DNA of 64,000 nt, from positions 1,236 to 65,235 of IMG/VR virus record IMGVR_UViG_3300021956_000013. One strand, written 5' to 3'. This document shows positions 36,322 through 50,220 of this stretch, one piece after another; position 1 is the first letter of the stretch; each line of letters begins with the position of its first letter. Made by a program: the position numbers and the translations under genes. Source of the DNA: a virus. Under the pieces are notes generated by a model. It ran no database searches and was not told the origin of the DNA. It saw nothing but the letters and a program-made list of their open reading frames with translations.

Positions 36322-36507
36322 ATGTTCAGAACACAAGACCAGACACTAGCAGTTGCTCACCTATGGGCTATTGAGATTCCCTATGAAGGTGTTGATTCTT
36401 ACTTAGGTCTATTTGCTACACAAGAACTAGCACAGGCGTTCATTGACGCTGATGAATACTTACAGGGCTACGCTGTTGCTATGCCTATGGCTTTGCCTAC
36501 TGCCTAA
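36322..36507 (+). CDS. Cassette ORF, hypothetical
   Basis: Motif promoter, GAAAGG RBS; stop abuts next motif. Confidence 0.7.
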   Translation: MFRTQDQTLAVAHLWAIEIPYEGVDSYLGLFATQELAQAFIDADEYLQGYAVAMPMALPTA

Positions 36508-36561
36508 TGTCAGTGGTATCACTTATACTTATAACATCAAACAAAGAATAGGAAATAATAA

Positions 36562-36708
36562 ATGTCAGTAGAACTAACAGAACTAGAACTAGAAATCGCA
36601 ACTGAACTTGCTTGCTATGACTTTGATGGAAATGGTAAGCAGTTCTGGGCAGAGGTAGAGAGACTTGCTCAGTTTGGAGAAAACTGGGGAGACCACCTGC
36701 CAGAGTAA
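36562..36708 (+). CDS. Cassette ORF, acidic 48 aa
   Basis: MSVELTELELEIATELACYDFDG...; motif promoter and RBS. Confidence 0.65.
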   Translation: MSVELTELELEIATELACYDFDGNGKQFWAEVERLAQFGENWGDHLPE

Positions 36709-36774
36709 ATGTCAGTGGTATCCACTACAATAAACCTATAAACAAATAAACCAACTAAAAGAAAGAAATACTAA

Positions 36775-36942
36775 ATGAAAATCTATTCAATAATCATCAC
36801 AGGCTCTAATGGCGTTGCCCCTATCTATGAAGTTCATTCTTGGGAAAAGGCAGAAGAAGTTATCCGTTCTACTATGAAACTAACTAATGAAGCCTTTACT
36901 TTTGAAGTAGTAGGCAGAGTAGAAGAAAGACAGGGGGAGTAA
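36775..36942 (+). CDS. Cassette ORF, 55 aa
   Basis: MKIYSIIITGSNGVAPIYEVHSWEKAEEV... Confidence 0.65.
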   Translation: MKIYSIIITGSNGVAPIYEVHSWEKAEEVIRSTMKLTNEAFTFEVVGRVEERQGE

Positions 36943-36999
36943 GTGTGGTTAGCCTTATTCTTAACCTTGCTCGTGTTGCTCGTATTGGTAAGTCAGTAG
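36943..36999 (+). CDS. TM micropeptide, 18 aa
   Basis: GTG start, WLALFLTLLVLLVLVSQ; GGGGAG upstream. Confidence 0.4.
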   Translation: MWLALFLTLLVLLVLVSQ

Positions 37000-37001
37000 T
37001 A

Positions 37002-37100
37002 ATGCCACAGATACAGGCTTTTGCTTGTAAGCGTTGCTCTACTATCGCAAGCGTATCGCTACTAGATAATAAACTAAAGATAAATAAATGTAATTGCTAA
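37002..37100 (+). CDS. Cys-rich micro-ORF, 32 aa
   Basis: MPQIQAFACKRC...KCNC. Confidence 0.5.
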   Translation: MPQIQAFACKRCSTIASVSLLDNKLKINKCNC

Positions 37101-37149
37101 GGTTGTGGGCGTGTCGCTATTGACATGCCCCAACTTTTGTGCCGACCCC

Positions 37150-37170
37150 TGTGGATAACTCTGTGGATAG
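37150..37170 (-). promoter_or_regulatory. Tandem DnaA boxes
   Basis: TGTGGATAA (reverse complement of TTATCCACA) at 37150 and TGTGGATAG at 37162. Confidence 0.6.
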
Positions 37171-37296
37171 TTGTTCATTTAGTTAATCTTTTAAGTTATT
37201 TGCAAAATGTTCGCAAACACGCTTATTTTGGCGTGTCAAATAGGGTCAAATGTCAGTGGTTAGGTATAGTCTAATAAAGTCAAAGAAAGGACAAAA

Positions 37297-37431
37297 ATGA
37301 AAGACAAAAAGACAGAACTAACCCAGATGTTAGCCAAGTATGCGAGAGCAGGAATACCCCTAACTAACGCTGAGAAAAACCTAATCAAGTATCTACTAGC
37401 CAAAGATAACAAAATGATAACGAATAAGTAA
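37297..37431 (+). CDS. Cassette ORF, 44 aa basic
   Basis: Motif promoter, GAAAGG RBS. Confidence 0.6.
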   Translation: MKDKKTELTQMLAKYARAGIPLTNAEKNLIKYLLAKDNKMITNK

Positions 37432-37525
37432 ATATTCGCAAAACTGAACATAATGGGCGTGTCAAAGGGTCTAAATGTCAGTGGTAGGGTATAGAGTAAT
37501 AATAGATAAAAGAAAGGCAAGTCAA

Positions 37526-37645
37526 ATGACTAACTACGAAATCAAAGCAAGATACAAAGAACTAATGCGTATCGCAGAAAGTGATGTAATGACAGCAAGC
37601 GAGTTTGATGAACTTATGGCAATGTTCGCAAAACTAAATAAATAA
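37526..37645 (+). CDS. Cassette ORF, 39 aa
   Basis: Motif promoter, GAAAGG RBS. Confidence 0.6.
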   Translation: MTNYEIKARYKELMRIAESDVMTASEFDELMAMFAKLNK

Positions 37646-37663
37646 AACTTAGTTTAGTTAGTG

Positions 37664-37706
37664 AGCCTGATTAGGTGAGCCTAGAAATAGCAAATAAACT
37701 AATCAG
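37664..37706 (+). ncRNA. Pseudoknot motif, variant copy
   Basis: gccTGATTAggt...aaacTAATCA; compensatory variant of the TGAGCA/TGCTCA pairing. Confidence 0.45.
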
Positions 37707-37773
37707 CAAATAAATAACTAAACAAAAACAAAACTAAATAAATAATAATCTACAAAAAAGAAATGAGAAATAA

Positions 37774-38184
37774 ATGAAAATAAAAACTTGGAAAGAAACC
37801 CAAATCCTTCTATCACTTAGCGACTATCGCAAGTTTTATGCGACTATCGCAGAACTGCCTAATGGTGAAAAGTCTATCGCTATCCATAACAAACTAATCA
37901 ACCTTAGCAATGTTTATCTAAACTATGACTATGAAAATGATACAATGCTATCTCAAAAAAATAGTGAGTGGAAATACTCTGCTGAACTAGATAGTTTTGC
38001 TACGAGTGAGTTTGTAAAAGTAAAAAACTTACTTGCTGAACTAAATGAGTTAGGCGTGAAAAGTTATTCTAACGAAATGCGTGTCAGTGATGGCGAAACT
38101 TATTTCTTAGCGTTTCTAAAAATGGAGTGCGTGTTGCGTTCTCGTGTGTTGCTTGCTCACTCTTATAGAGTAAAGCAACGCTAA
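37774..38184 (+). CDS. Hypothetical protein, 136 aa
   Basis: ORF with A-rich leader, followed by hairpin. Confidence 0.7.
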   Translation: MKIKTWKETQILLSLSDYRKFYATIAELPNGEKSIAIHNKLINLSNVYLNYDYENDTMLSQKNSEWKYSAELDSFATSEFVKVKNLLAELNELGVKSYSNEMRVSDGETYFLAFLKMECVLRSRVLLAHSYRVKQR

Positions 38185-38258
38185 AAATAAATTAGCAAAA
38201 AAAATAATTGTGTTAGTAAAAATAAAATTGCTAACGCAAAAATTTTTTGCCGACCGCC

Positions 38259-38272
38259 CGAACAAATGTTCG
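38259..38272. promoter_or_regulatory. SOS (LexA) box
   Basis: CGAAC-AAAT-GTTCG, matches the Gram-positive/actinobacterial CGAAC-N4-GTTCG consensus. Confidence 0.7.
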
Positions 38273-38329
38273 AATTAAGTGGAGCGTGTCGTTTCCCTAA
38301 ATGTCAGTGGTATGGTATAGGTTATAACT

Positions 38330-38476
38330 ATGAATAAATCAACTTGTTTCCTTTGCTCAGTCGCTACCCCTGCTCACCTTGTTGTTATTTCTAATGGCAA
38401 TGTGTTCCGTTCATGTGAGGCTTGCCTTGCTGGATACCCTGACCACCTAATCGAAACAACTATCGCTCTACCCTAA
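38330..38476 (+). CDS. Leaderless zinc-finger micro-ORF, 48 aa
   Basis: CFLC...CEAC; ATG about 6 nt after -10. Confidence 0.65.
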   Translation: MNKSTCFLCSVATPAHLVVISNGNVFRSCEACLAGYPDHLIETTIALP

Positions 38477-38490
38477 CGAAAGGTTCCACT

Positions 38491-38592
38491 ATGGAAAACT
38501 GCTGCTACTGCAACACTCCCTCTGTTCAAATCTGGGGGCAGGTCTGCTCAGATTGTGAGGACACCCTAGACTGGGGTGATGACGAAGACTAG
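38491..38592 (+). CDS. Zinc-finger acidic micro-ORF, 33 aa
   Basis: CCYC...CSDC, D-rich end; GAAAGG RBS. Confidence 0.6.
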   Translation: MENCCYCNTPSVQIWGQVCSDCEDTLDWGDDED

Positions 38593-38624
38593 ACTTGACA
38601 AAACACCCGAAAGGGTGCCGACCC

Positions 38625-38638
38625 CGAACAAATGTTCG
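38625..38638. promoter_or_regulatory. SOS (LexA) box
   Basis: Second identical CGAACAAATGTTCG. Confidence 0.7.
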
Positions 38639-38712
38639 ATTTACGTTGGGGGATTCTTTTCCCTAAATGTCAGTGGTAGGTGGTAGTGTATAACTATAAC
38701 GAAAGGAAGCCA

Positions 38713-38838
38713 ATGGAAATCATTCTCATTGAAGCAAGTTGCTCCAAATGCTGTGATTCACTGTTTTCAAGCAGCGAGCAAGAGTTCAAAACTCTACTAG
38801 ATAACCACGATTGCAAAACTGCGACCAGACCTTACTAG
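38713..38838 (+). CDS. CxxC...HxC mini-protein (family A)
   Basis: ASCSKCCDSLFSSSEQEFKTLLDNHDC. Confidence 0.65.
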   Translation: MEIILIEASCSKCCDSLFSSSEQEFKTLLDNHDCKTATRPY

Positions 38839-38891
38839 TCTGTGTCAGTGGTATCTGCTAAAATAAAACTAATCAAGAAAGGTAAAAACTA

Positions 38892-39041
38892 ATGGCAAAA
38901 ATGGCTGAACTATTCGAGGCAACTAACTATCCAGAGTTGGAGATTGCTGAGTGTGCTAAGTGTGGAACTGAAATCCTATTCGCAACTGAAACTGAGTTTG
39001 AGAAGTTGGTTGCTGAACACATACACACTTATCGCTGGTAG
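38892..39041 (+). CDS. CxxC...HxH mini-protein (family A)
   Basis: MAKMAELFEATN...AECAKCGTEILFATETEFEKLVAEHIH. Confidence 0.7.
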   Translation: MAKMAELFEATNYPELEIAECAKCGTEILFATETEFEKLVAEHIHTYRW

Positions 39042-39201
39042 GTGTGTCGCACTTGACAAAAGCCCTTCGGGGTGCCGACCGCAAAAATTTCCAAATGTCA
39101 ATACGACACGCCAAAAAATTTTCCAGAAATAAAGCGTGTCTAAATAATCAAATGTCAGTGGTCAGGTGTATAATAAAGGTATAAAGAAAAGGAAATAATA
39201 A

Positions 39202-39288
39202 ATGAGTGAAAAAGAAATGACACCAGAGCAGTTAGTAGCAGAGCAGGAATACCTTGCTTGGTTAGCAGAAGTTAGAAGACAAGGCTAA
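39202..39288 (+). CDS. Cassette micro-ORF, 28 aa
   Basis: Motif promoter and AAGGA RBS. Confidence 0.55.
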   Translation: MSEKEMTPEQLVAEQEYLAWLAEVRRQG

Positions 39289-39362
39289 CGCTCTGGCGTG
39301 TTTAACGCCTAATGTCAGTGGTATCCTGTAAAATAGAACTAATCAAAAGAAATGGAAAATAA

Positions 39363-39533
39363 ATGTTAGACAAGAACTCAAACATCTACCAAGTAGTAGA
39401 AGCCCTAAAAACTAAGAACTCAGTTTCTGCTGATGCTCCATACCCTTACCTGTCTGGTATGTGTTGGAGTTTGCTAAATGAAACTCAGCGTAAAAAGTTG
39501 ATAGAAATGGTAAATAAGATGGAGAATAAATAA
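39363..39533 (+). CDS. Cassette ORF, 56 aa
   Basis: Motif promoter; translationally coupled to next ORF. Confidence 0.65.
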   Translation: MLDKNSNIYQVVEALKTKNSVSADAPYPYLSGMCWSLLNETQRKKLIEMVNKMENK

Positions 39534-39629
39534 ATGGAAGACTGGAAACTCGCATTAGCAGAAATCCAAAAGTCAATGAGAGAAGACTTTATTTCTCAAA
39601 TCAAAACTAATGAACAGGAAAATAAATAA
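39534..39629 (+). CDS. Micro-ORF, 31 aa
   Basis: TAAATG coupling; GGAG RBS. Confidence 0.55.
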   Translation: MEDWKLALAEIQKSMREDFISQIKTNEQENK

Positions 39630-39835
39630 TGGTAAAAGTTGCTCTAGTAATCTCAACACTAATCTTAGGTGTATTCAGTTTTGTAATCGCTGACGCTTAT
39701 AGATACACTTCACTAATCAATGACCAAGAGAGTTATAAAGTATTCTCTGGTCAATGGGCGTTAGTTGGTGTTCAGTTTGTAGTTGGTTCTCTAATCTTGG
39801 CGTTGATGTTCATAATCAAATCACGCAAGAAATAA
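39629..39835 (+). CDS. Two-TM membrane protein
   Basis: Two hydrophobic helices, basic tail. Confidence 0.7.
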   Translation: MVKVALVISTLILGVFSFVIADAYRYTSLINDQESYKVFSGQWALVGVQFVVGSLILALMFIIKSRKK

Positions 39836-39890
39836 AAAAATAATCTTGTGGGTGTGTCGCTTGACATACCCCAAGATTTTTGCCGACCCC

Positions 39891-39899
39891 TGTGGATAA
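39891..39899 (-). promoter_or_regulatory. DnaA box
   Basis: TGTGGATAA within GCCGACCCCTGTGGATAAC, identical to 37141-37159. Confidence 0.6.
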
Positions 39900-39999
39900 C
39901 TTATAACGATTTGGTTACGAGAGTTAAGAAACACCCCCTAAATCCCCTAAATGTCAGTGGTATCCCCTATAATAGAAACATAACAAGAAAGGCTAACTA

Positions 40000-40152
40000 A
40001 TGAACTTACCAACCAAACTACACAAGAACCCTAGCAAGAGATACACCCTATTTGAATACACCATAAATGGCTCAACAGTTGTATCTGCTATTCATTTCTA
40101 CGACTTGCTCCCATTTCTAGCAGAACACCCAGAAGCCAAGCGTGTCCGCTAG
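40000..40152 (+). CDS. Cassette ORF, 50 aa
   Basis: Motif promoter, GAAAGG RBS. Confidence 0.65.
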   Translation: MNLPTKLHKNPSKRYTLFEYTINGSTVVSAIHFYDLLPFLAEHPEAKRVR

Positions 40153-40206
40153 GCTAAATGTCAGTGGTGCCCTGTATAATTGAACTAACTAAGAAAGGTA
40201 AAACTA

Positions 40207-40353
40207 ATGGCTAAAATGGCAGAACTATTTGAAGAGACTAACAGCATTATTTTTGATGTTGCTGAATGTGCAGAGTGTGGAGTTGAAATTGAATTCTCTA
40301 CTGATAAAGAATTTGCTGAATTGGTAAATGGACACGTTTGTGTCCGCTACTGA
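40207..40353 (+). CDS. CxxC...HxC mini-protein (family A)
   Basis: MAKMAELFEETN...AECAECGVEIEFSTDKEFAELVNGHVC; paralog of 38892. Confidence 0.7.
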   Translation: MAKMAELFEETNSIIFDVAECAECGVEIEFSTDKEFAELVNGHVCVRY

Positions 40354-40405
40354 TGTCAGTGGTCAGTTGTATAATTGAAATACCTAAAAGAAATGGAAAA
40401 ATAAA

Positions 40406-40594
40406 ATGGATAATATGGACAAGTTCTATGAACAGCGTGAGCAAGATTTCTGGACTTACTGGAACAAGGTAAAGGCTTATGCTGATGAAGCCAACACTGA
40501 TATTTATCAGGTTGTCAATTTTAGACAAATCTTTGACCAAGCCTATACGCTAGGTGCATTGCAAACACACAAGAAAGAAGATAATAATGAGTGA
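40406..40594 (+). CDS. Cassette ORF, 62 aa
   Basis: Motif promoter. Confidence 0.7.
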   Translation: MDNMDKFYEQREQDFWTYWNKVKAYADEANTDIYQVVNFRQIFDQAYTLGALQTHKKEDNNE

Positions 40595-40685
40595 AGAAGA
40601 AATAATAATTCTTGATAAACTAATTGACCACTTCAATTTTTTTGAAAAACTAATCGCTGAAAATAAAGAACAGGAAAAAAACTAA
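40587..40685 (+). CDS. Micro-ORF, 32 aa
   Basis: Overlap-coupled to neighbours. Confidence 0.5.
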   Translation: MSEEEIIILDKLIDHFNFFEKLIAENKEQEKN

Positions 40686-40885
40686 TGGACATCTATGAAA
40701 AATTTACTCAAGAAGAATTAGAGCAGATGCATGATGAAATGCTGGATGAAACTTATCCACCATACAGAATTGGATACACAGATTTTTATCCATCACAAAT
40801 TTTAGCAAACTGCGACCCAATCATGTATCAAATTTCTGTTCAAGAGTATGCAGACTTTTTGCAAGAGCAGGAAAATGAAGAATGA
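40685..40885 (+). CDS. Acidic phage hypothetical protein
   Basis: DEMLDETYP...PSQILANCDPI. Confidence 0.7.
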   Translation: MDIYEKFTQEELEQMHDEMLDETYPPYRIGYTDFYPSQILANCDPIMYQISVQEYADFLQEQENEE

Positions 40886-40941
40886 TTGCTCTGGGAATAA
40901 TTTTAACAGTTTTAGTGTTTATATATTTAGTAAATCAATAA
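40882..40941 (+). CDS. TM micropeptide, 19 aa
   Basis: MIALGIILTVLVFIYLVNQ; ATGA overlap. Confidence 0.5.
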   Translation: MIALGIILTVLVFIYLVNQ

Positions 40942-41067
40942 ATAAAATTGGTGGTGTGTCTTCTTGACATGCCACCTTTTTTGTGCCGACCGCCCCTGGC
41001 GTGTCGTGTATTAAGTGCTGATGTCAGTAGTCCCCTGTATAATTATTTTATCTAAGAAAGGCTAACT

Positions 41068-41181
41068 ATGGAAGAAAAGACCACCTGCGATTTCTGTTCT
41101 AATGAATGGATTGGCTATGTCCAAATTGGAAATGACTTACCTTGGGTATGCGAAACACACTGGGAAATGTACGCTAAGTAA
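41068..41181 (+). CDS. Zinc-finger micro-ORF, 37 aa
   Basis: CDFC...CETH. Confidence 0.65.
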   Translation: MEEKTTCDFCSNEWIGYVQIGNDLPWVCETHWEMYAK

Positions 41182-41233
41182 ATGTCAGTGGCTACCTGTA
41201 TAATTATTCTATCAACCAAGAAAGGCACTAACT

Positions 41234-41512
41234 ATGGCAGTATTCAATTTCATTTCTGATGATTCACACGGATGGATGGAAGTTTCTCTAATCGAATTCC
41301 CTGAAGCAATAAACTACGCATCAGGTTTTGGCTACATCAACGGAAATACTATTTATCTTGAAGAAGATGATGAGGCTGAAAACTTTATCTACCACCTGAG
41401 AAGTCAGGGTGAGCCTATCACTTTCGCTGAGAAAATCTATGACGGACAGTGGTATGGCAGAGCGTATGCTCGCAATGTCAGGGGTATGCACTATAATCAA
41501 ACTACTAACTAA
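41234..41512 (+). CDS. Hypothetical protein, 92 aa
   Basis: FISDDSHGW...IYLEED; 3' end contains next promoter motif. Confidence 0.7.
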   Translation: MAVFNFISDDSHGWMEVSLIEFPEAINYASGFGYINGNTIYLEEDDEAENFIYHLRSQGEPITFAEKIYDGQWYGRAYARNVRGMHYNQTTN

Positions 41513-41523
41513 GAAAGGCAACT

Positions 41524-41637
41524 ATGCTACTATACAGTGATGACTATGAGCCAGACAACTATGAGGGAGACCAAGACCTCAATGAGTATGAGGATGACTG
41601 GTCAACTGTTGAGAGCGAACTCTTCGGAGATTGCTAA
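41524..41637 (+). CDS. Very acidic micro-ORF, 37 aa
   Basis: SDDYEPDNYEGDQDLNEYEDDW; GAAAGG RBS. Confidence 0.6.
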   Translation: MLLYSDDYEPDNYEGDQDLNEYEDDWSTVESELFGDC

Positions 41638-41769
41638 CTCAGCACCCTTCGGGGTGCCGACCACGACACGCCCGAAAAACATTTAAGATAAAAAAAGATT
41701 TTCCCCATTTCCTATTGCCAAATGTCAGTGGTATCGCTTATAATAGAAGTATCAAGAAAGGAAAAACTA

Positions 41770-41925
41770 ATGAAAACTATTTGCGTATTTTGTCTAGAAG
41801 TCTATGGGGAAGACGCTATTGGTTGCTGGTCTTGTAATGAATACAAGGGCATAATGCCACTAAACGAAGAAACACTAAACTACTTAGGCGAAGACCTAGA
41901 AGACTGGGCAGAATACCTAGTCTAA
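41770..41925 (+). CDS. Zinc-finger acidic protein, 51 aa
   Basis: CVFC...CWSC. Confidence 0.7.
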   Translation: MKTICVFCLEVYGEDAIGCWSCNEYKGIMPLNEETLNYLGEDLEDWAEYLV

Positions 41926-41964
41926 TGTCAGTGGTCGCTGGTAAAATAATAACATCAACAAGAA

Positions 41965-42177
41965 ATGGAAAATAAAATGGAAAATGAAAAAAAGAGATAC
42001 ACCTTTGGTGGCTTCACATTTGGCACTAACAACCTGTTCAACCTAACTATCCTAGTTCGCAACCACGCTGGACACGGAACTAGCAACTCTGTTGAACTTG
42101 GACTAGAACTAAATACTGCTGAAATCCAAGAACTAATCACTGTTCTACTAACTAGAAATGTAAAGGAAGATAACTAA
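41965..42177 (+). CDS. Cassette ORF, 70 aa
   Basis: Motif promoter. Confidence 0.65.
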   Translation: MENKMENEKKRYTFGGFTFGTNNLFNLTILVRNHAGHGTSNSVELGLELNTAEIQELITVLLTRNVKEDN

Positions 42178-42368
42178 TGATGACACGCAAGGACTATGTT
42201 AGCACTGCTGAGATTTTGGCAGACTATCGCAGAGATTTTTACTCTACCCCCGAAACTGCTGACAGTTTTGAAGCAATGGTAAATGACTTTGCTCAAATGT
42301 TCGCAGATGACAACGAGAGATTTATGCGTTCTAAGTTTATTGACGCTTGCTTAGGAGAGGATTTCTAA
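42177..42368 (+). CDS. Hypothetical protein, 63 aa
   Basis: MTRKDY...AQMFADDNERFMRSKFIDAC, a common phage small-protein pattern. Confidence 0.75.
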   Translation: MMTRKDYVSTAEILADYRRDFYSTPETADSFEAMVNDFAQMFADDNERFMRSKFIDACLGEDF

Positions 42369-42521
42369 ATGGAAATTGTATTCGCAATACTTGGAGTTAT
42401 TCTAGTTGGTTATTTATTCTGGCAGAGTTATTTGCTTGCTAATTATTCTAAAATTATAGATAACCAAAAAGATGTTATCGCTAAGTTGGCTAGAGAGATA
42501 GACACACTAAAACCTTTTTAG
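42369..42521 (+). CDS. TM plus coiled-coil protein, 50 aa
   Basis: Hydrophobic N-terminus; GGAGAGG RBS. Confidence 0.6.
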   Translation: MEIVFAILGVILVGYLFWQSYLLANYSKIIDNQKDVIAKLAREIDTLKPF

Positions 42522-42648
42522 TTTTCTCAATCGCTACCCTTCGGGGTGGCGATTTGGGTCGGCAGCCCAAGGTTACATCTAGGTTACGATAATTAAGAAA
42601 CACACCCAAAATCTCCACGATGTCAGTGGTATTGTGTATAATAGGACT

Positions 42649-42819
42649 ATGAAGAAAAGAAAGCCACCACTAAATAAAGTTGCTCAGGCAACTCGCAACG
42701 CACACTCAGCAGAACTTTTTAGAAGTCTGTTACTAAACAAGCACCTAGTCGCTACCCCTGCCAAGCGTAAGGGTTCTCGCAAGGCTAACATCATCAAGGC
42801 TATCAAGGAGTATAACTAA
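42649..42819 (+). CDS. Leaderless basic protein, 56 aa
   Basis: K/R-rich; ATG about 6 nt after TATAAT. Confidence 0.65.
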   Translation: MKKRKPPLNKVAQATRNAHSAELFRSLLLNKHLVATPAKRKGSRKANIIKAIKEYN

Positions 42820-43115
42820 TGGCTAAATCAAATAAAGTAAATCTAATGGACATAACAGACCTGCCACTAGAAGAACAAATCTATCAAATCCTAAGAGGTA
42901 GAGGTTTCCACACTAGGTTTGTAGGTATAGACCTAAGAGAGTTAGCAGAGGAAATAGTTTTTACTCTTGACTTTGTAAATGGAGATAATCCTGACCAGCC
43001 TATTATCCTGAATACCCTGCCAGAAATAACAGGTGAAGACGGAGTTCCAGCACTAGACCTAATCAAGCGTTTTGGTTTAGATGACTATGTTATGGAGAGT
43101 GTCCTAAATGGATAA
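42819..43115 (+). CDS. Hypothetical protein
   Basis: AAGGAG RBS, coupled start. Confidence 0.7.
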   Translation: MAKSNKVNLMDITDLPLEEQIYQILRGRGFHTRFVGIDLRELAEEIVFTLDFVNGDNPDQPIILNTLPEITGEDGVPALDLIKRFGLDDYVMESVLNG

Positions 43116-43501: not shown

Positions 43502-43633
43502 ATGGAAAACGAAGACAAAGAATACTTCAAGGAAATGTTTGAGCAGTATCACAATGGTGAAATAGATGTTTTTGAACTAATGGATAATCTTGAAACTGAT
43601 AGATTTGATGGAGATGTTTTTGATTACCTGTAA
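43502..43633 (+). CDS. Acidic micro-ORF, 43 aa
   Basis: AAGGAG RBS. Confidence 0.65.
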   Translation: MENEDKEYFKEMFEQYHNGEIDVFELMDNLETDRFDGDVFDYL

Positions 43634-43708
43634 CTAGGTACCCTTCGGGGTCGGCACAATGTCAGTGGTCGTATGTATAATAGACTTACGAAAGAAAGAG
43701 GAAACCCC

Positions 43709-43843
43709 ATGAATGTATCAGTAGAAAAACTAATTGAGATGAAGGTATTGCGAGAGTCTATGTTTGGCTCTGGAGATTGGTATGTAATCTATACCGAAGA
43801 TGGACCTAAAGATGTATCCCTTGCTACCCTGACAAGTGAGTAA
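43709..43843 (+). CDS. Cassette ORF, 44 aa
   Basis: Motif promoter; stop abuts next motif. Confidence 0.65.
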   Translation: MNVSVEKLIEMKVLRESMFGSGDWYVIYTEDGPKDVSLATLTSE

Positions 43844-43892
43844 TGTCAGTGGTTGCCTGTAAAATAGAACTATCAAAAGAAAAGGGAAACTA

Positions 43893-44090
43893 ATGGAATG
43901 TTTAGATTGTATAAATAAAACTCATAAAATTTATTGGGGAGCCTTGTCCGAAAAAGACATGGAGTTATTGGGATACACCTACCATAAGTGTTTATTTTGT
44001 TCTCACCAACCTCTAATTTGGAATACCCTTATTGGAGATGCAGTCTGCGAGGGTTGCGGTGAATGGCAAGATGTCAGTGGTATCAGGTAA
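43893..44090 (+). CDS. Zinc-finger protein
   Basis: CLDC, CLFC, CEGC; ends DVSGIR. Confidence 0.7.
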   Translation: MECLDCINKTHKIYWGALSEKDMELLGYTYHKCLFCSHQPLIWNTLIGDAVCEGCGEWQDVSGIR

Positions 44091-44119
44091 AATAGAACTA
44101 TCAAAAGAAAAGGAAAAAA

Positions 44120-44404
44120 ATGAGACCAGTTGTAATGGATAGACACGTTGCCAACCTTGGACTACAAGCAGGTATGGGTGACGATTGGACAGAACTATTC
44201 TGCGATAAAGAGTTTATGGCTATGCTCCAGACTCACTATAACCAGATGGTGAAATACATAAAGGCTAAGTATCTTACTTATCCGTGTAATGATTTTGCTC
44301 CAGATACCCTTGCTCCAGACGAGCGAGATGGAATTGATTGGACGCTGGTATGCACTACTTGTCTGCACCATAAGCAAGACCATAATGTCAGTGGTATCAA
44401 GTAA
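44120..44404 (+). CDS. Cys/His-containing protein
   Basis: CTTCLHHKQDH; ends NVSGIK. Confidence 0.7.
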   Translation: MRPVVMDRHVANLGLQAGMGDDWTELFCDKEFMAMLQTHYNQMVKYIKAKYLTYPCNDFAPDTLAPDERDGIDWTLVCTTCLHHKQDHNVSGIK

Positions 44405-44434
44405 AATAGTATTATCAAAAGAAAAGGAAAACTA

Positions 44435-44956
44435 ATGGAACAAAACTTAGATGTAATGATTGCGACAGTATCAACAGATTGTCAGTGTAGTTATTTTGAC
44501 GAAGAACTAGATGACTTTGTTGCTATGGAGTATTGCGAAGGCGATTGCTACTACTGGCAGAAGGAAGATGTGATGATGGTGATTGGCGAATGGCAGTTGC
44601 TGAATGACATTGACGAAGATGACCTTATCCGTATCTCTGGAACTAAGATTGGTTGGCAGGGTAGAAGTGGATACAAGGATACAGACATTCTAGAACTACA
44701 CGGAGCGTTAGCCCTTGACGGAGATTTCCGTATCACTTGGACACTAGACATTCCAAACAAGAAACTAACTGCTAGGCGTTCATCTCACGATGAACCTATG
44801 GGAGCAAACTTTGAGATTGACTTTATCAAGATGACTACTTGCGACAATTGCGATAACGCCATCTCTGTTGATACTCACGCAGAAGAACTTGGTATGTGTG
44901 TTGATTGCTCTAACGAATACTTTACTCACAATGACGAAGAGCCTATTGACTTGTAG
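44435..44956 (+). CDS. Acidic Cys-rich protein, 173 aa
   Basis: SSHDEPMG motif, CDNC...CVDC. Confidence 0.75.
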   Translation: MEQNLDVMIATVSTDCQCSYFDEELDDFVAMEYCEGDCYYWQKEDVMMVIGEWQLLNDIDEDDLIRISGTKIGWQGRSGYKDTDILELHGALALDGDFRITWTLDIPNKKLTARRSSHDEPMGANFEIDFIKMTTCDNCDNAISVDTHAEELGMCVDCSNEYFTHNDEEPIDL

Positions 44957-44979
44957 AGAGTAATGTGAGACAATAGAGT

Positions 44980-45048
44980 ATGAATACAACAATAACGATA
45001 ATCACAATAGGAAGTTTAGCAATACTGCTATTCTTACTAAATCAGTAG
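44980..45048 (+). CDS. TM micropeptide, 22 aa
   Basis: MNTTITIITIGSLAILLFLLNQ. Confidence 0.45.
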   Translation: MNTTITIITIGSLAILLFLLNQ

Positions 45049-45188
45049 TCCTGCTACCCTCGAAAGAGGGTGCCAGGCTGCCGACCGCAAATGTAACAAA
45101 ACGATAAATCATTTACGAAACACCCTAAATGTCCCCTAAATGTCAGGGGTAGCCCTTATAATAGAACTACAACAAAGAAAGGAAACCA

Positions 45189-45566
45189 ATGGAAGATTAT
45201 TGGGATGATGTAGAAATGGCAGTTCAGTTTGCTCAGGGTATCGCTTTTGATACCTGCCACAAAATCTATGTTCTTATGGATGATAAGCAAGTAGAACTTA
45301 TGCGTGAGTATCAGTATGACGAGATTAGAACTAGAAGTGAAATGAAACCAGCAGAAATGTTTGACACTCTAAAAAAGTGGTATGCCGAAAGTTGTGCCTT
45401 GAAGTTTATTCAGGGTGTTCATAGCGTAGGTGAGAACGAAGACGAGAATGATGGTTTTGACACACTTATTCCACAAGGGGCAGAGCAAGAAGAAGACGAA
45501 TGCGACTTATGCTTTTCTCATTGTGGAGATACCTGCCAAGACGATGATGAAGAAGACGAAGACTAA
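45189..45566 (+). CDS. Acidic hypothetical protein
   Basis: GIAFDTCHKIY...SCALKFI; D/E tail. Confidence 0.75.
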   Translation: MEDYWDDVEMAVQFAQGIAFDTCHKIYVLMDDKQVELMREYQYDEIRTRSEMKPAEMFDTLKKWYAESCALKFIQGVHSVGENEDENDGFDTLIPQGAEQEEDECDLCFSHCGDTCQDDDEEDED

Positions 45567-45670
45567 TGGAACAAATAGTCTTAGAGTGTGAGAGTAATCA
45601 CGAATGGATTGGCTCACCGCTTTACTGCTCCGCCTGTGGAGTAGATAAAGGAAACGAAACCAACCCCTAA
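45566..45670 (+). CDS. Zinc-ribbon micro-ORF, 34 aa
   Basis: CESNHEW...CSACG. Confidence 0.6.
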   Translation: MEQIVLECESNHEWIGSPLYCSACGVDKGNETNP

Positions 45671-45723
45671 TGTCAGTGGTTAGGTTTATAATAGAAATAC
45701 AACAAAAGATAAGGAATAAATAA

Positions 45724-46125
45724 ATGGAAAACAACGAAAGCAAGCACCCTGTTCTTACTGCCCTAAATGGCAAGATAGAAGAACTACTAGCACAACTAGC
45801 AAAACTACAAGCAGACTACGAATTGCTTGATAGCAGATACGCAAGGGAAGTTAGAGCAAGGCAAGACCACGAAACTTACCTAAACGAAACTCTAATGAAC
45901 GCTATTGAGAATGGCTACGACAGAGAAACCATTTTCTATGTTGCTAACGAACTTGATGTTTCACTAACACAACTAAAAACATTTGTGGTTCAGGCAGAGT
46001 TTCAGGTAGAAGTCATTATGCCTATTGACGAAGAGTTTGATGCTGATGACTTGGACTTTACCCTAAGCCACGAAAATCTAAATGATTATACTTTCACAGG
46101 TATAATTTCTAGTGAAGAGAATTAG
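45724..46125 (+). CDS. Coiled-coil acidic protein
   Basis: 133 aa, motif promoter. Confidence 0.75.
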   Translation: MENNESKHPVLTALNGKIEELLAQLAKLQADYELLDSRYAREVRARQDHETYLNETLMNAIENGYDRETIFYVANELDVSLTQLKTFVVQAEFQVEVIMPIDEEFDADDLDFTLSHENLNDYTFTGIISSEEN

Positions 46126-46152
46126 GCGGTTCTAACCTTTCTTTTCCGCCTA

Positions 46153-46180
46153 ACACCTGAGTAAGTGTATAAACTGCTCA
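46153..46180 (+). ncRNA. H-type pseudoknot motif
   Basis: ACAC-c-TGAGTA-a-GTGT-ataaac-TGCTCA. Confidence 0.55.
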
Positions 46181-46289
46181 TTTTTTGTGCCGACCAAAAA
46201 TAACAAATCCATAACTTATTTACGATAGCCCTTGTAAATGTCAGGGGTAGGCTGTATAATAGAACTATCAAAGAAAGAGAGAAAACCCT

Positions 46290-46517
46290 ATGTTGTATGT
46301 AGCCCCTGATGGAAACTATGGTGAAGCAGAATACCTTGTTGTTGTAGATAACGAGAGTTTTGACGAACACTTTTACGGATACCTTGACACTTGTGCTGAC
46401 TGGCTAAGACCTAGTTTTGCTAAGTGGTTTGAAGAAAATGACCACGACTTTACCCAAGCAGATAACTTAGAGTGGGCTTGTTCCGTTTGTGAAGAGTGGT
46501 TAGAGAGTGAGAGATAA
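46290..46517 (+). CDS. Acidic hypothetical protein
   Basis: YVAPDGNYGEA. Confidence 0.7.
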   Translation: MLYVAPDGNYGEAEYLVVVDNESFDEHFYGYLDTCADWLRPSFAKWFEENDHDFTQADNLEWACSVCEEWLESER

Positions 46518-46645
46518 TGGCAGAAGTAAACTATTGGCGAAACATGTTCTATGACCTGCTTGAAGAAGTAGAGCAAATGTATGGACATGAAGATGTTTGG
46601 GAAAAGTTCAGGGAATACGCAAAAGAGTTAGAAGAGGATAACTAA
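46517..46645 (+). CDS. Acidic micro-ORF, 42 aa
   Basis: TAATG coupling on both sides. Confidence 0.6.
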   Translation: MAEVNYWRNMFYDLLEEVEQMYGHEDVWEKFREYAKELEEDN

Positions 46646-46833
46646 TGATAGTTCAGGTTCAATGCAACTGGTGTGAAAAACTATTTGATGATGTTGACAT
46701 CGTAGAGTGTGATGTTTGTAAGACAGACTCTTACCTAATGGACATAAGAGATGAGCCTTGGGGTCTTGACTCTTCCAAGGGGTATTCAATCTATGGTCAG
46801 GAAACAGGTCTAAGGGATAGTGACTTTATCTAA
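46645..46833 (+). CDS. Zinc-ribbon protein
   Basis: CNWC...CDVC. Confidence 0.7.
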   Translation: MIVQVQCNWCEKLFDDVDIVECDVCKTDSYLMDIRDEPWGLDSSKGYSIYGQETGLRDSDFI

Positions 46834-46876
46834 TGTCAGTGGTAGGGTTTATAATAGAACTAACGAAAGGAAACAA

Positions 46877-46978
46877 ATGATAAACTTTGACAATGTTATC
46901 AACGAAGAAGCAATCGAAAAACTAACAGATGAGCAAGCAGAAGCCTTATTGGCTATTTTAGAGAAAGCAGGATACTAA
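46877..46978 (+). CDS. Micro-ORF, 33 aa
   Basis: FDNVINEEAIEKLTDEQAEALLAIL; GAAAGG RBS. Confidence 0.65.
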   Translation: MINFDNVINEEAIEKLTDEQAEALLAILEKAGY

Positions 46979-47178
46979 TGCCTAAATACGCATTCAACTT
47001 TTGGGAAGAAAGCAAATGGGCTATCACCTTTGAAGCAGACAACCTAGACCACGCTAAGAAACTATTGGCAGAAGCAGAAGAAGAAATGGACTTAGATTGG
47101 TTGCCTGAAATGGAACGCTTTTTCAAAAAGGGTGATGAAACTTGGGACAGCGAAACACTAGCAGAAGTGGAGAACTAA
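46978..47178 (+). CDS. DpnD/PcfM-like acidic protein
   Basis: YAFNF...ITFEADNLDHAKKL pattern. Confidence 0.55.
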   Translation: MPKYAFNFWEESKWAITFEADNLDHAKKLLAEAEEEMDLDWLPEMERFFKKGDETWDSETLAEVEN

Positions 47179-47339
47179 TGGAACTAGCACAAGCATACGA
47201 AATAGTATTAGCAGACTTAGAAGAAAGAAATAGTCATACCATAGGTAGATTGCTTCACTGGGACTGGACAGGTCAAAATGAAGAACTTATGTATAGGGCT
47301 TGGTTGGTTGCTAAAACTTTTATTGAGCAGAACGAATAG
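47178..47339 (+). CDS. Hypothetical protein
   Basis: Coupled start MELAQAYE. Confidence 0.6.
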   Translation: MELAQAYEIVLADLEERNSHTIGRLLHWDWTGQNEELMYRAWLVAKTFIEQNE

Positions 47340-47409
47340 CACTACCCTTCGGGGTCGGCAGCCAAAAATAACAGAATGATAACGCTTTACGAAATCTTTT
47401 ACGAAACCC

Positions 47410-47438
47410 TTGACTTTTCCCCCATTTTCCCTTATACT
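47410..47438 (+). promoter_or_regulatory. Canonical sigma-A-type promoter
   Basis: TTGACT-17-TATACT. Confidence 0.7.
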
Positions 47439-47487
47439 TGTAGTATCAACAAAAGTTGAGAAAAACTACAAGTAGAAAGAAGCAAAA

Positions 47488-47646
47488 ATGGCAAACACAT
47501 TTACCATTCCATCTGTTGGCTCACAGTTCGCAACCCAGAAGTCTGGCGTTGTTGGCACAGTTCAGGAAGTAATCAAGAACGCAAATGGTTCATTCCGTAT
47601 CAAACTTGATGTTGCTGGACAGCCACGCTGGACAACTGCTAAGTAA
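47488..47646 (+). CDS. Small beta-barrel (SH3/KOW-like) protein, 52 aa
   Basis: PSVGSQFATQKSGVVGTVQEVIKNANGSFRIKLDV; biased codons. Confidence 0.75.
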   Translation: MANTFTIPSVGSQFATQKSGVVGTVQEVIKNANGSFRIKLDVAGQPRWTTAK

Positions 47647-47661
47647 GTCCTAGAAATAGGG

Positions 47662-47695
47662 CAGACCTGAGCAAGTCTGGCAAAAAAACTGCTCA
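47662..47695 (+). ncRNA. H-type pseudoknot motif
   Basis: CAGAC-c-TGAGCA-a-GTCTG-gcaaaaaaac-TGCTCA. Confidence 0.55.
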
Positions 47696-47701
47696 ACCCT
47701 A

Positions 47702-47730
47702 TTGACAAATCCCTTATCAACCTGTATAAT
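47702..47730 (+). promoter_or_regulatory. Consensus sigma-A-type promoter
   Basis: TTGACA-17-TATAAT. Confidence 0.8.
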
Positions 47731-47768
47731 TGTATTATACAAATAACCCTAATAGAAAGTAGAAAATA

Positions 47769-48209
47769 ATGGCAAGAGCCTTATCAGTAAAAGTTCCAAC
47801 ATCAAGTCTAATCGCTTTGTTGGAAGACAAAATCGCAACAATCCAAACTGCTATCGCAGATTATCCAAGAGCAAAGGCTCAATACAAGGAAGATGTAAAG
47901 GCATACAAGAAGTCTGTCCTAAACCTTGCCCTATCCAAGATTGCTTCTAACCCAGAAGTCTTGTTTGATAACGATAGCCTAGATGTTAGCACATCTTATC
48001 GCAATGATGTCCAAATCACTTTGGATAAGGACTTGTTTGAGTTGCCAGAAATGCCAGAGCAACCAGAAGACCCAAATCGTAAAGAGTGGATTGGCAGAGA
48101 CCACACAACTAAGTTGTCTGTTTTAGAGAAAACTCTGGCTGTTCTAAAACTAACAAATCAGGAAGAAGTAAGTGCTTCCACATACAACTCTGTAATGGAG
48201 TTGCTATAA
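47769..48209 (+). CDS. Hypothetical protein, 146 aa
   Basis: Consensus promoter; ALSVKVPT...LKLTNQEEVSASTYNSV. Confidence 0.8.
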   Translation: MARALSVKVPTSSLIALLEDKIATIQTAIADYPRAKAQYKEDVKAYKKSVLNLALSKIASNPEVLFDNDSLDVSTSYRNDVQITLDKDLFELPEMPEQPEDPNRKEWIGRDHTTKLSVLEKTLAVLKLTNQEEVSASTYNSVMELL

Positions 48210-48228
48210 ACCATAGGCTTACGCCTAA

Positions 48229-48256
48229 ACACCTAAGCAAGTGTCTAAACTGCTTA
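48229..48256 (+). ncRNA. H-type pseudoknot motif
   Basis: ACAC-c-TAAGCA-a-GTGT-ctaaac-TGCTTA. Confidence 0.55.
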
Positions 48257-48264
48257 TCTCTAAC

Positions 48265-48555
48265 AAGGTTGTTTAGTTTGGGTTCAATTCCCAAATAGAG
48301 AACAAACAAGCGAATGACGATTTGCTTGGAGTATGGCTGAACGAAGTTCTTTGTCTAGGAGGAACGAGAAAGGCACAGCGTGGGTTTAGCGACCCCAACT
48401 TAGCGGTTGAAAGCGTTGGTAGGATGATGGCGGTACTATAAGAGACTCCCAGACTACTCCTTGGTGGTAATAGACAATCCACCTACTCACACACTTCCCC
48501 CTGTGAAGATTGACTATCCTAATTAGATAGGTAAAATTAGCAGGGGGATTTTTTG
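48265..48555 (+). ncRNA. Candidate structured ncRNA with T-loop
   Basis: About 290 nt with no credible ORF; TTGGG-TTCAATT-CCCAA T-arm-like hairpin; ends at tccccctg/caggggga hairpin plus T-run. Confidence 0.35.
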
Positions 48556-48609
48556 TGCCGACCCCCATAACGTTTTGGTAACACTAGTAAAATTGTTTTA
48601 CGAAACACT

Positions 48610-48638
48610 TGACAAATCCCCGAAATAATGGGATAATT
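48610..48638 (+). promoter_or_regulatory. Sigma-A-type promoter
   Basis: TTGACA-17-GATAAT. Confidence 0.65.
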
Positions 48639-48679
48639 GAGTATCAAATAAATCCATTTATCACGAAAGGTGTCCATTT

Positions 48680-49693
48680 ATGGCTCACGAATTAGAAATC
48701 AACGAAGCAACAGGCGAAGCGTCTTTTGCTTCCCTACGCCAACCTGCTTGGCACAATCTTGGAACTGTGTTTCAGGAAGAAGTATCAACTGCTAAGATGT
48801 TGGAATTAGCAAAACTAGACAATTGGAATGTTCGTCTTGAAGATGTGGTTGTCCCTGCTGGTTTTACTAGCGACAGAAACTACTCATTCGTATCTCGCAC
48901 AAATCCATTCAACGCAGAACAAACAGACATTCTTGGTGTCGTTGGTGAGCGTTATGTTCCACTACAAAATGAAGACTTGTTTTCATTTGGCGATAACTTG
49001 CTAGATGGTGGTGGGCGTTGGGAAACTGCTGGTTCAATCAAGGGTGGCAGACAAGTTTTCGGTTCTATCGCATTAGAGCGTGAAACTGTCCTTGACCCTA
49101 ATGGCGTGTCTGATGTTGTCAAGTCATACCTGCTACTAAACACAAGCCACGATGGAAGTATCGCTATCCAAGCGTCTATTACTCCTGTTCGTGTAGTTTG
49201 TGCTAACACTCTAAACCTTGCTCTATCTTCTCTAAAAGGTAAAAAGGGTATCAAACAAACTTTCAAGATTAGACACACACAAACAGCAGAAGGTAAAATC
49301 GCTGTTGCTCGTGAAGCGTTGGGTCTTGCTAATCACTACTTAGACGAGTTTGATTTACTTGCTAAGGAAATGATTGCTAAGGAAATCACACAGGCTAAGT
49401 TTGATGAGATTGTTCTAAAAGCGTATCCAATGCCAACTAAGGACAGCAAGGGTTCTATGAAGAAGTGGTCAGATAAGATTGACCTTATTCAATCTATCTA
49501 TGTTGGCGATTACAACAACACAATTTCAGGAACTGCTTGGGGTGCTTTGAACGCATTGACAGAACGCCTAGATTGGTATCGCAACTCTCGTGGTTCAAAC
49601 AACGAAAGCATTTACGCAAGTGCTTCTGGTTTTGACCCTGTAATCAACGCAGAGAAAAATCGTTTGATGAACTTGGTTTTGGCAAGCGTATAA
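48680..49693 (+). CDS. DUF932 / TIGR03299 phage-plasmid protein
   Basis: MAHELE...PAWHNLG, GVVGERYVPLQN, ETAGSIKGGRQVF, SHDGS, TPVRVVCANTL, GTAWGALNA. Confidence 0.9.
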   Translation: MAHELEINEATGEASFASLRQPAWHNLGTVFQEEVSTAKMLELAKLDNWNVRLEDVVVPAGFTSDRNYSFVSRTNPFNAEQTDILGVVGERYVPLQNEDLFSFGDNLLDGGGRWETAGSIKGGRQVFGSIALERETVLDPNGVSDVVKSYLLLNTSHDGSIAIQASITPVRVVCANTLNLALSSLKGKKGIKQTFKIRHTQTAEGKIAVAREALGLANHYLDEFDLLAKEMIAKEITQAKFDEIVLKAYPMPTKDSKGSMKKWSDKIDLIQSIYVGDYNNTISGTAWGALNALTERLDWYRNSRGSNNESIYASASGFDPVINAEKNRLMNLVLASV

Positions 49694-49699
49694 TCTCGC

Positions 49700-49727
49700 A
49701 GACCTGAGCAAGTCTAAAAACTGCTTA
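49700..49727 (+). ncRNA. H-type pseudoknot motif
   Basis: AGAC-c-TGAGCA-a-GTCT-aaaaac-TGCTTA, 6 nt after stop. Confidence 0.55.
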
Positions 49728-49862
49728 CCAATTTCTCACTTGACAAAGTGCGAAATTTGGGTCGGCAATTTCTAACTAGTTAATCATTTATGTTGATTAC
49801 GAAATGGTTAAGATTTCCCTAAAACTATTGCATTTGTCAGTGGTCATCTGTATAATTGACTT

Positions 49863-50171
49863 ATGAATGAAAACGAAACTATTATCCTTACCCCTGTTTA
49901 TGACGAAGACAACGCACCTTACATCTACCCTGACGCAGATGACTTACAATCCTATCAAAGATTACAGTTTATCGTGTGGGGGCTAGAAAGCCTAGAAAAG
50001 CAACTATGGAACTCTGCTGAACGAGGCTGGCACGACACCAGTGGTCCCGAATTCCAATCATTCCTAAAGATGATTAGGGGTATCTACAACGAGAAGACTG
50101 ATAGCCTTACTAAGTATAACTTTGTAATCCTAGAAGACGAGATGTTAGAGCAAGCATCACAGATGTTCTAA
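49863..50171 (+). CDS. Leaderless hypothetical protein
   Basis: ATG about 6 nt after TATAAT; stop abuts next motif. Confidence 0.7.
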   Translation: MNENETIILTPVYDEDNAPYIYPDADDLQSYQRLQFIVWGLESLEKQLWNSAERGWHDTSGPEFQSFLKMIRGIYNEKTDSLTKYNFVILEDEMLEQASQMF

Positions 50172-50220
50172 TGTCAGTGGTATCCCCTATAATAAGAACC
50201 TAACAGAAAGAGAAAACCCT

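Follow-up and report, generated by a model that had tools for sequence, protein, structure and literature searches.

The window considered here, 64,000 nucleotides (nt) long, comprises bases 1236–65235 of the 70.9-kb IMG/VR virus record IMGVR_UViG_3300021956_000013, which is ~70% complete. Its plus strand carries an array of small open reading frames (ORFs) in which a conserved leader, marked by the hexamer TGTCAG, recurs 30 times. Comparison with related viral contigs indicates that cassettes of this array have been gained, lost and moved, and points to the leader as a preferred region of crossover, but not as the only breakpoint. The original prediction had proposed TGTCAG as the crossover point of a unit made of promoter, ribosome-binding site and ORF, in an integron-like gene accordion, and this interpretation is partly supported by the comparisons. 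Taken as a whole, the explanation that we regard as probable is that (i) the virus is a freshwater siphovirus with a genome of roughly 90–105 kb and the array is its early, ORFan-rich arm, (ii) homology between leaders has allowed shuffling like that ascribed to promoter–early stem-loop (PeSL) modules and (iii) fusions between stop codons and the motif have a separate cause.

36273–50230, plus strand: array with 30 leader copies, each copy ahead of 1–6 small ORFs without known family
48680–49693, plus strand: conserved DUF932 / phrog_1221 gene, the anchor for retrieving related arrays

With the DUF932 gene as query, 456 related viral contigs were obtained. The relatives L010, L011, L013, L014 and L015 were found via this anchor and have 18–19 copies of the same motif in each; L089 was added by a search with gene 44435–44956, giving a comparison of the window and six relatives. 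All of the comparison sequences are metagenome assemblies, and assembled contigs of runs X3 (an independent run), X4, X8 and X14 were compared as well. A megablast search of the array against 50,697 phage records gave no match. Aligned over 123 copies from six genomes (the window and five relatives), the leader has the consensus order AATGTCAGTGGT, a variable N6, TATAAT (at times TAAAAT), an A-rich Shine–Dalgarno (SD) stretch and ATG.

Promoter-core mosaics and cassette rearrangement

Three-part mosaicism, in which the upstream gene, the predicted promoter core and the downstream gene occur in different combinations, appears to us to be sharper evidence for exchange than the ends of homology blocks. 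The 26-nt core ATCAAG-TAAAAT-AGTATTATC lies between gene families 34 and 35 in the window, between 69 and 35 in L013 and between 34 and 33 in L014. Another core, TGCCTG-TAAAAT-AGAACTATC, is found between families 32 and 33 in the window, ahead of 43893–44090, and between families 31 and 35 in L089, ahead of the homologue of the gene at 44435; the promoter core of 43841–43898 is 98% identical in L089, where it precedes a different gene. The window and L014 agree exactly over the end of gene 43893–44090 as far as TGTCAGTGGT, after which the cores differ, and gene 44435–44956 stands behind four different cores. The core at 39952 is the same as that before the homologue of the gene at 50221 (the equivalent of the copy at 50172) in L010 and L013, 10 kb away. 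Between genomes, 23 promoter pairs differ at no more than 2 of 26 positions, and nine of these are in non-orthologous contexts. Because cores reassort with both upstream and downstream genes, crossovers have occurred both in the 12-mer and in the block formed by the −10 box, SD sequence and ATG. The mosaics are unusually clean and place the crossovers in these two short conserved blocks. Ungapped identity of promoter segments, sorted by shared neighbours, was too noisy at ~25% divergence, and the analysis of near-identical cores was used instead.

The ends of homology blocks point to the same region. Of 78 left ends of non-contiguous blocks, 27 are no more than 10 nt from TGTCAG, compared with 4% for random positions, and most are at −1 to −5. 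Neighbouring genes stay together at 26 of 44 informative motif junctions versus 25 of 30 motif-free ones (p ~0.04, the comparisons being non-independent). The claim of crossover at the motif is upheld in that block edges concentrate there and identical cores stand between different neighbours; it fails in that exchange is neither exactly nor only at the motif. Breakpoints away from the motif, which the original prediction had itself named as adverse, were found at GCCGACC boxes, at promoterless junctions and around an inverted cassette, beside the motif-bounded ones.

Colinear arrays in related genomes had likewise been named as adverse, and the related genomes are not colinear. Gene-family maps of the window and the six relatives show a shared backbone (e.g. 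41770–43115 and 47488–50457) with many gains, losses and moves. Three segments illustrate these events:

45094–46190, plus strand: block of cassettes 36 and 37, located before 46239–47339 in the window, L010 and L011 and after 46239–47339 in L013, L014, L015, L089 and X3
43871–44412, plus strand: segment with cassettes 33 and 34, absent in the strain of run X3 and in L089
45566–45670, plus strand: 34-amino-acid Cys/His-rich ORF, inserted at a ACTAATGG stop–start junction, its stop abutting the motif

The 45094–46190 relocation was joined at two GCCGACC boxes (45080 and 46189) rather than at TGTCAG (X3 joints 45073 to 46190 and 46184 to 47386). In the X3 strain, which is ~90% identical, position 43870 is joined to 44413, both at an equal offset within their promoter copies, and 15 nt at the joint fit either side; several more X3 joints lie in register inside leaders. 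L089 has a single hybrid promoter at the place of 43871–44412, ahead of gene 44435–44956. The small ORF 45566–45670 is absent in L013, L014, L089 and X3 (X3 joint 45564 to 45669). Family 22 (41234–41512) occurs in three different neighbourhoods, and 43108–43470 is present in three of the seven genomes, in two positions (absent in L010, L011, L013 and L014; elsewhere in L015). Most of these events could, from the present comparisons, be read either as gains or as losses. The image of a gene accordion does not fit, since no recent copy-number expansion is seen; the only duplicate in the window is an old pair, 38892–39041 and 40207–40353, with 59% amino acid identity.

The leader, associated elements and genome context

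TGTCAG occurs 60 times in the window, versus 35.1 ± 5.5 expected. There are 33 plus-strand occurrences between 36273 and 50172, 30 of them with the full context TGTCAG-[TG]GGT-N6-TAnnnT; those at 36563, 38082 and 44480 are plain hexamers within ORFs, without that context. The 30 copies, contained in 14 kb, are all in one orientation and are spaced by ~460 bp. As a repeat family (D1), the leader is represented by 22 copies of 58 nt, and the 10-mer TGTCAGTGGT is found 24 times in the forward and once in the reverse direction in the 70.9-kb record (control pattern, 0).

36273, 36508, 36710, 37251, 37476, 38302, 38668, 38843, 39153, 39313, 39952, 40159, 40354, 41022 and 41183, plus strand: TGTCAG starts of the first 15 copies
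41476, 41723, 41926, 42621, 43455, 43660, 43844, 44072, 44386, 45141, 45671, 46239, 46834, 49835 and 50172, plus strand: TGTCAG starts of the last 15 copies
43841–43898, plus strand: reference leader copy, consisting of TAA, TGTCAGTGGT (−28 to −19), N6, the −10 box TAAAAT, the predicted +1 at index 28, the SD sequence AAAAGG and the ATG of 43893–44090

Counted from the T of TGTCAG, a conserved TA is located at index 27–28, and the predicted transcription start is 7 nt past the −10 box. The start is followed by an A-rich stretch with AAAGGA-type SD sequences and by an ATG near index 46–52. The 12-mer AATGTCAGTGGT occupies positions −30 to −19 and TGTCAG positions −28 to −23, beginning 16 nt before the −10 box. 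A scan for the sigma-70 −35/−10 consensus was not enriched (45 sites versus 41 expected from shuffled sequence). We infer from this layout that the leader works as a promoter with its start at index 28. When 20 ORFs from the array and its flanks were scanned against Pfam and PHROG, none of the array genes matched a family significantly.

In three cassettes, the ATG coincides with the predicted start itself:

38330–38476, plus strand: leaderless cassette, ATG at motif index 28, the predicted +1
42649–42819 and 49863–50171, plus strand: leaderless cassettes of the same layout, ATG at index 28

These cassettes lack an SD sequence, have their ATG 7 bases past the −10 box and keep this arrangement in relatives. 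A conserved ATG precisely at index 28 agrees with transcription beginning there and with leaderless translation, and the three cassettes probably give leaderless mRNAs. Their presence may also point to a host in which such mRNAs are efficiently translated, such as a member of the Actinobacteria. As an aid to annotation, the model of promoter and start site, including the three leaderless genes, would apply to ~450 related metagenomic contigs.

A different repeated element lies upstream of some promoters:

37107–37147, plus strand: terminator-like hairpin, T-run, then GCCGACC
38249, 38617, 39074, 39882, 40985, 41656, 45080, 46189, 48557 and 51270 (also 53709): like elements, by GCCGACC position
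38208–38255, 39850–39888 and 40950–40991: hairpin spans

The hairpins have arms GGGCGTGTC / GACATGCCC, or a CCCTTCGGGG tetraloop, and are followed by a T-run and the invariant GCCGACC. Hairpin, T-run and GCCGACC occur together at ~11 junctions, 20–110 nt before some promoters; most leaders have no stem-loop of their own. Judged from sequence, the GCCGACC element is a second repeated boundary family, placed at putative operon ends and at the joint of at least one block relocation. The combination TTGACA...GCCGACC was considered as a second class of promoter and rejected, TTGACA being an arm of the terminator-like hairpin. A palindrome, CGAACAAATGTTCG, is found in two copies (~38258–38275 and 38623–38640) after GCCGACC and ~30 nt before a cassette promoter, and both copies sit inside an 82-nt duplicated segment. 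The palindrome looks similar to the LexA box known from Gram-positive bacteria. Another short repeat, TTACGAAACACCC(C)TAAAT..CCCC, immediately precedes some of the promoters (39924–39951, 42593–42620, 45113–45140, 47392–47422 and 48591–48621); it moves along with cassette 45141–45566, the homology beginning at 45094.

The minus-strand half codes for a portal protein (phrog_12), an S78-type prohead protease, a tape measure protein of 3122 amino acids and a ribonucleotide reductase. The tape measure protein matches PhageMin_Tail; the virus is a large siphovirus, not a T4-type myovirus, and the sequencing runs that contain its DNA are freshwater metagenomes, with the window present at full word share in two samples, X1 and X2. 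Within the tape measure gene (4002–13370, minus strand), a match resembling PI3/PI4-kinases is located near residues 2814–2876 (E = 2.5e-4, under the Pfam cut-off). Beyond the array lie a PstS-like phosphate-binding protein gene (56162–57184, plus strand; phrog_5385) and, at 57987–62021, clustered genes for glycosyltransferases and epimerases; these look like auxiliary metabolic and surface-modification genes.

Stop codons at the motif and read-through tails

The original prediction had listed nine ORFs whose stop codons lie 0–1 nt before TGTCAG and four more that run through the motif and end in motif-encoded tails. All nine stops are correct, seven at 0 nt and two at 1 nt, as are the four quoted tails.

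36507, 36708, 40353 (TGA), 41181, 41925, 43843, 45670, 46833 and 50171, plus strand: ORF ends abutting the motif
36508, 36710, 40354, 41183, 41926, 43844, 45671, 46834 and 50172, plus strand: matching TGTCAG starts
36505–36513, plus strand: example of the abutment, TAA-TGTCAG
41234–41512, plus strand: family 22 ORF, tail NVRGMHYNQTTN, with a promoter copy (41476) in frame
43108–43470, plus strand: family 30 ORF, tail NVSGQ, no promoter of its own
43893–44090, plus strand: family 33 ORF, tail DVSGIR, weak Zn-ribbon match
44120–44404, plus strand: family 34 ORF of 94 amino acids, tail NVSGIK

The abutment recurs in relatives, where the same gene family has a gap of 0 or 1 nt depending on the genome. 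It exceeds chance for a simple reason: the stop belongs to the motif. Across the 123 leader copies, AA at positions −2/−1 is conserved at 77% and 92%, and a stop triplet stands 0 or 1 nt upstream in 66 copies; by our gene calls only 28 of them end a gene, and 36 close no called gene. The leader itself closes the two remaining frames, one by the TAA of TATAAT and the other by N6, TAAAAT or the ACTAATG start region. In all, the leader ends 87% of incoming frames ahead of the ATG that follows, and 63% of copies block every one of the three frames, versus 21% at random positions. The TAAAAT variant of the −10 box was considered as a device for supplying stops to read-through ORFs and rejected, as only 2 of the 6 TAAAAT copies in the window do so.

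The fusions of stop and motif had been read as evidence of cassette joining. They are not scars left by recombination: (T)AA(A) is a component of the motif itself and persists at copies that close no ORF. Nor could such a fusion arise from crossover between two motifs, because this would leave the upstream sequence unchanged. The data point instead to a second cause of the abutment, namely small deletions that would push ORF ends up to the motif.

Whether homologues of the four read-through ORFs lack the tail had been suggested as a check, and this comparison shows the origin of two of the tails. For 43108–43470, the homologue in L015 has its own stop 19 nt before the motif, and the window is without 23 nt there, which produces NVSGQ. 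For 44120–44404, L011 reads ...GACCAC TAA-TGTCAG; one C has been lost in the window, putting the stop out of frame and producing NVSGIK. This gene is also modular, L014:2906–3082 being its N-terminal half only, fused to the same motif and tail, and L011:5685–5798 its Cys/His-rich C-terminal half only, behind another gene. The L014 homologue of 43893–44090 has the same DVSG fusion with another promoter core and another downstream gene. The fusion is older, since it is common to L014, and because the core differs the crossover interval at the end of this gene is the 12-mer. In 41234–41512, the stretch N-V-R-G-M/I-H-Y-N-Q is conserved protein in the homologues, the 3′ part of the gene being different in every genome; in L010 and L014 this stretch (N-V-R-G-I/M-H-Y-N-Q) comes with a decayed motif. 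The tail of 41234–41512 is thus best described as promoter-like sequence inside a conserved coding region. A tempting inference is thereby corrected: the stop–promoter fusions come from a stop-bearing motif and deletional compaction.

Mechanism, alternatives and known systems

The mechanism that we consider most likely is general homologous recombination on short, imperfect repeats that a regulatory role would keep alike, together with illegitimate events. Each unit would carry the conserved 58-nt leader at its 5′ end, and some units would finish in a terminator hairpin followed by GCCGACC. Leaders repeated in one orientation could then serve as short, portable homology, and crossovers in the 12-mer and in the stretch of −10 box, SD sequence and ATG would delete, insert or move cassettes and reassort promoter cores. 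With a stop-bearing motif in a compact genome, small deletions would press ORF ends against sequence that cannot be lost, and ORFs losing their own stop would end a few codons inside the leader. The recombinase may be of the RecA type, as is UvsX of T4: a RecA-family gene of ~345 amino acids is present in all four relatives searched (e.g. L092 and L093: G003:64760–65482, G001:43876–44613). RecT, Erf and AAA_24 were not found in the record or in four relatives.

Several observations weigh against leader homology as the cause or limit how finely it can be traced. The RecA-family gene is not in the 71 kb of this phage, probably because the record is incomplete. Block ends at the edge of the motif are expected under several models, because all leaders are alike. 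The relatives are ~70–90% identical in DNA (a divergence of 10–30%), so the events are old and crossover points are resolved to conserved blocks only. The −35 position is occupied by unconserved sequence, with no canonical −35 element, and promoters next to each other are only slightly more similar than distant ones (permutation p 0.01–0.34 per genome). Promoterless entry or exit is seen at ACTAATGG-type stop–start overlaps (TAATG) for 45566–45670, 43108–43470 and the trio at 39363–39835, and a breakpoint lies inside a gene, the family 34 halves in L011 and L014. Finally, L089:6585–6820 is an inverted cassette homologous to 38843–39072 of the window; it comprises a promoter, a 49-amino-acid gene and a hairpin and lies between two hairpins. 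This gene-11 cassette is the only inversion seen and is unexplained by repeat-mediated recombination, because the leader copies are direct repeats.

Observations of this kind would also be expected if the motif were a passive boundary, with illegitimate recombination making joints anywhere and selection retaining only whole promoter–gene units; given little spacer, edges would then fall at the junction of stop and motif. Five of the 30 motif-free adjacencies are broken, 43108–43470 and 45566–45670 were inserted without a promoter, 44120–44404 is split mid-gene in relatives, the L089 cassette is inverted, and the 23-nt and 1-nt deletions could be ordinary small-indel turnover at gene ends. We nevertheless consider this account unlikely as the main explanation: every hybrid leader is in register and has one intact spacing, identical 26-nt cores occur between neighbours unrelated on both sides, one core is common to cassettes 10 kb apart, and the left ends of blocks cluster at −1 to −8 and are not spread through longer spacers. 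A quite different concern is that assemblers switched between co-occurring strains at the repeated leader; all relatives are metagenome contigs, and several strains co-occur in the runs compared (mixed identity classes, many partial pieces). Exact identity among leaders is short, however, the 12-mer plus at most ~26 nt, which is under the usual assembly word sizes, and identical arrangements turn up repeatedly, in several contigs that represent different samples and two pipelines (the 36/37 block after 46239–47339 in L013, L014, L015, L089 and X3; the loss of 43871–44412 in both L089 and X3). It is improbable that the repeat caused chimeric joins, although single contigs could contain them, and as an account of the whole pattern we hold assembly error to be very improbable.

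The least credible of the alternatives, in our judgement, is site-specific, integron-like exchange, in which a dedicated recombinase would cut at TGTCAG and move units of promoter, ribosome-binding site and ORF. Such an enzyme would account for the site that each cassette has at one end, fixed and oriented, and for the many block edges 1–5 nt before TGTCAG. Yet no tyrosine recombinase (PF00589) or serine recombinase (PF00239) was found in the record or in four relatives, three of which are 99–100% complete; all control genomes matched PF00589. Crossovers are located to either side of the promoter core as well as at other elements, the motif is asymmetric without an attC-like dyad, and every cassette has its own promoter. 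With no integrase found, a promoter for each cassette and a RecA-family gene in relatives, the term integron-like used in the original prediction is not retained.

Wider relatives show the same array architecture, in the 10 kb upstream of the DUF932 gene, with variant motifs AAATGTCGGTGGT, AAATGTCAGACC, AAATGTCTGACCC and TGTCCGTGGGT (L022, L027, L032, L034, L035, L044, L052, L057, L061, L069, L070, L085 and L088). (T)AAATGTC is the sole constant part across these variants, and TGTCGGTGG, TGTCAGACC, TGTCTGACCC and TGTCCGTGGGT differ further 3′. L022 and L032 each mix copies of TGTCAGTGG and TGTCGGTGG, which weakens the idea that motif variants define compatibility groups. At the 12-mer itself, the phage group has TGTCAGTGGT, TGTCGGTGGT, TGTCAGACC, TGTCTGACCC and TGTCCGTGGGT. 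It is conceivable, although we would not favor it, that the 12-mer at −30 to −19 is not read by the host sigma factor but serves as the docking site for a transcription factor that the phage encodes (an activator, an appropriator or a shut-off repressor), this factor co-evolving with the 12-mer across this freshwater phage group. Sigma-70 region 2 (PF04542) was not detected in the 71-kb record; the phage RNA polymerase family PF00940 gave no match there, but none in controls either. If the idea were true, regulatory selection would keep dozens of near-identical copies whose presence makes the early region recombine, stops built in for three frames would let any captured ORF join the module safely, and the regulatory word and the recombination substrate would be one selected element.

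How the array relates to known systems can be considered on this basis. Like an integron (IntI, attI/attC and a common Pc promoter), it lines up small, exchangeable and mutually unrelated genes in a single direction, each with a repeated site at one end; unlike an integron, it has no integrase and no palindromic attC, a promoter for each cassette, and crossovers distributed over ~58 nt and other elements. The morons of lambdoid phages, of which Juhala et al. are said to have written in 2000, are reportedly units of promoter, gene and terminator between conserved genes. The cassettes resemble them in being self-contained units of this composition, and the inverted gene-11 cassette of L089 behaves like one. 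Morons differ in being single insertions with unrelated promoters, whereas here the promoters form one repeat family that would supply the homology.

Cluster A mycobacteriophages (the L5 and TipsytheTRex repressors) have operator/stoperator sites, which a phage repressor binds as a monomer, in the form of more than 20 asymmetric 12–13-mers in a single orientation relative to transcription and in short intergenic spaces (PMC9283540). The oriented, asymmetric 12-mer described here (24:1), beside gene ends, is similar; the difference is that every copy is at a fixed distance from the −10 box and that no lysogeny genes were found. The fixed spacing suggests a promoter element or an operator, and the stoperator comparison may be a lead on what the 12-mer binds, not on shuffling.

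PeSL modules of T4-type phages combine a repeated early promoter with a stem-loop in hyperplastic regions (PMC2839356, PMC4122927) and are drawn from the stop codon of the upstream gene to the SD sequence and start codon of the next (Fig. 2, PMC2839356). Indels and replacements among closely related phages are attributed to these modules, which also give rise to mini-circles when neighbouring copies exchange (Arbiol et al. 2010, PMC2839356; Comeau et al. 2014, PMC4122927). The array shares with them a repeated, predicted early-promoter module just upstream of small ORFans in a plastic region, module-bounded indels, replacements and moves between relatives, terminator-like stem-loops at some junctions and a RecA-type recombinase in the phage group. 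It differs in belonging to a siphovirus rather than a T4-type myovirus, in having a lineage-variable 12-mer at −30 to −19 and no sigma-70 −35 element, where PeSL promoters have both consensus boxes (−35 and −10) below an AT-rich stretch, in a stem-loop that is a separate element with GCCGACC at ~11 junctions and not part of each promoter, and in its higher density (30 copies in 14 kb). If so, shuffling of the PeSL type, in which repeated regulatory modules act as portable homology, would not be confined to T4-like myoviruses but would extend to a group of uncultured freshwater siphoviruses with a different promoter that lacks a −35 element. PeSL-mediated shuffling appears to be the closest known system, and we would describe the array as PeSL-like, not integron-like.

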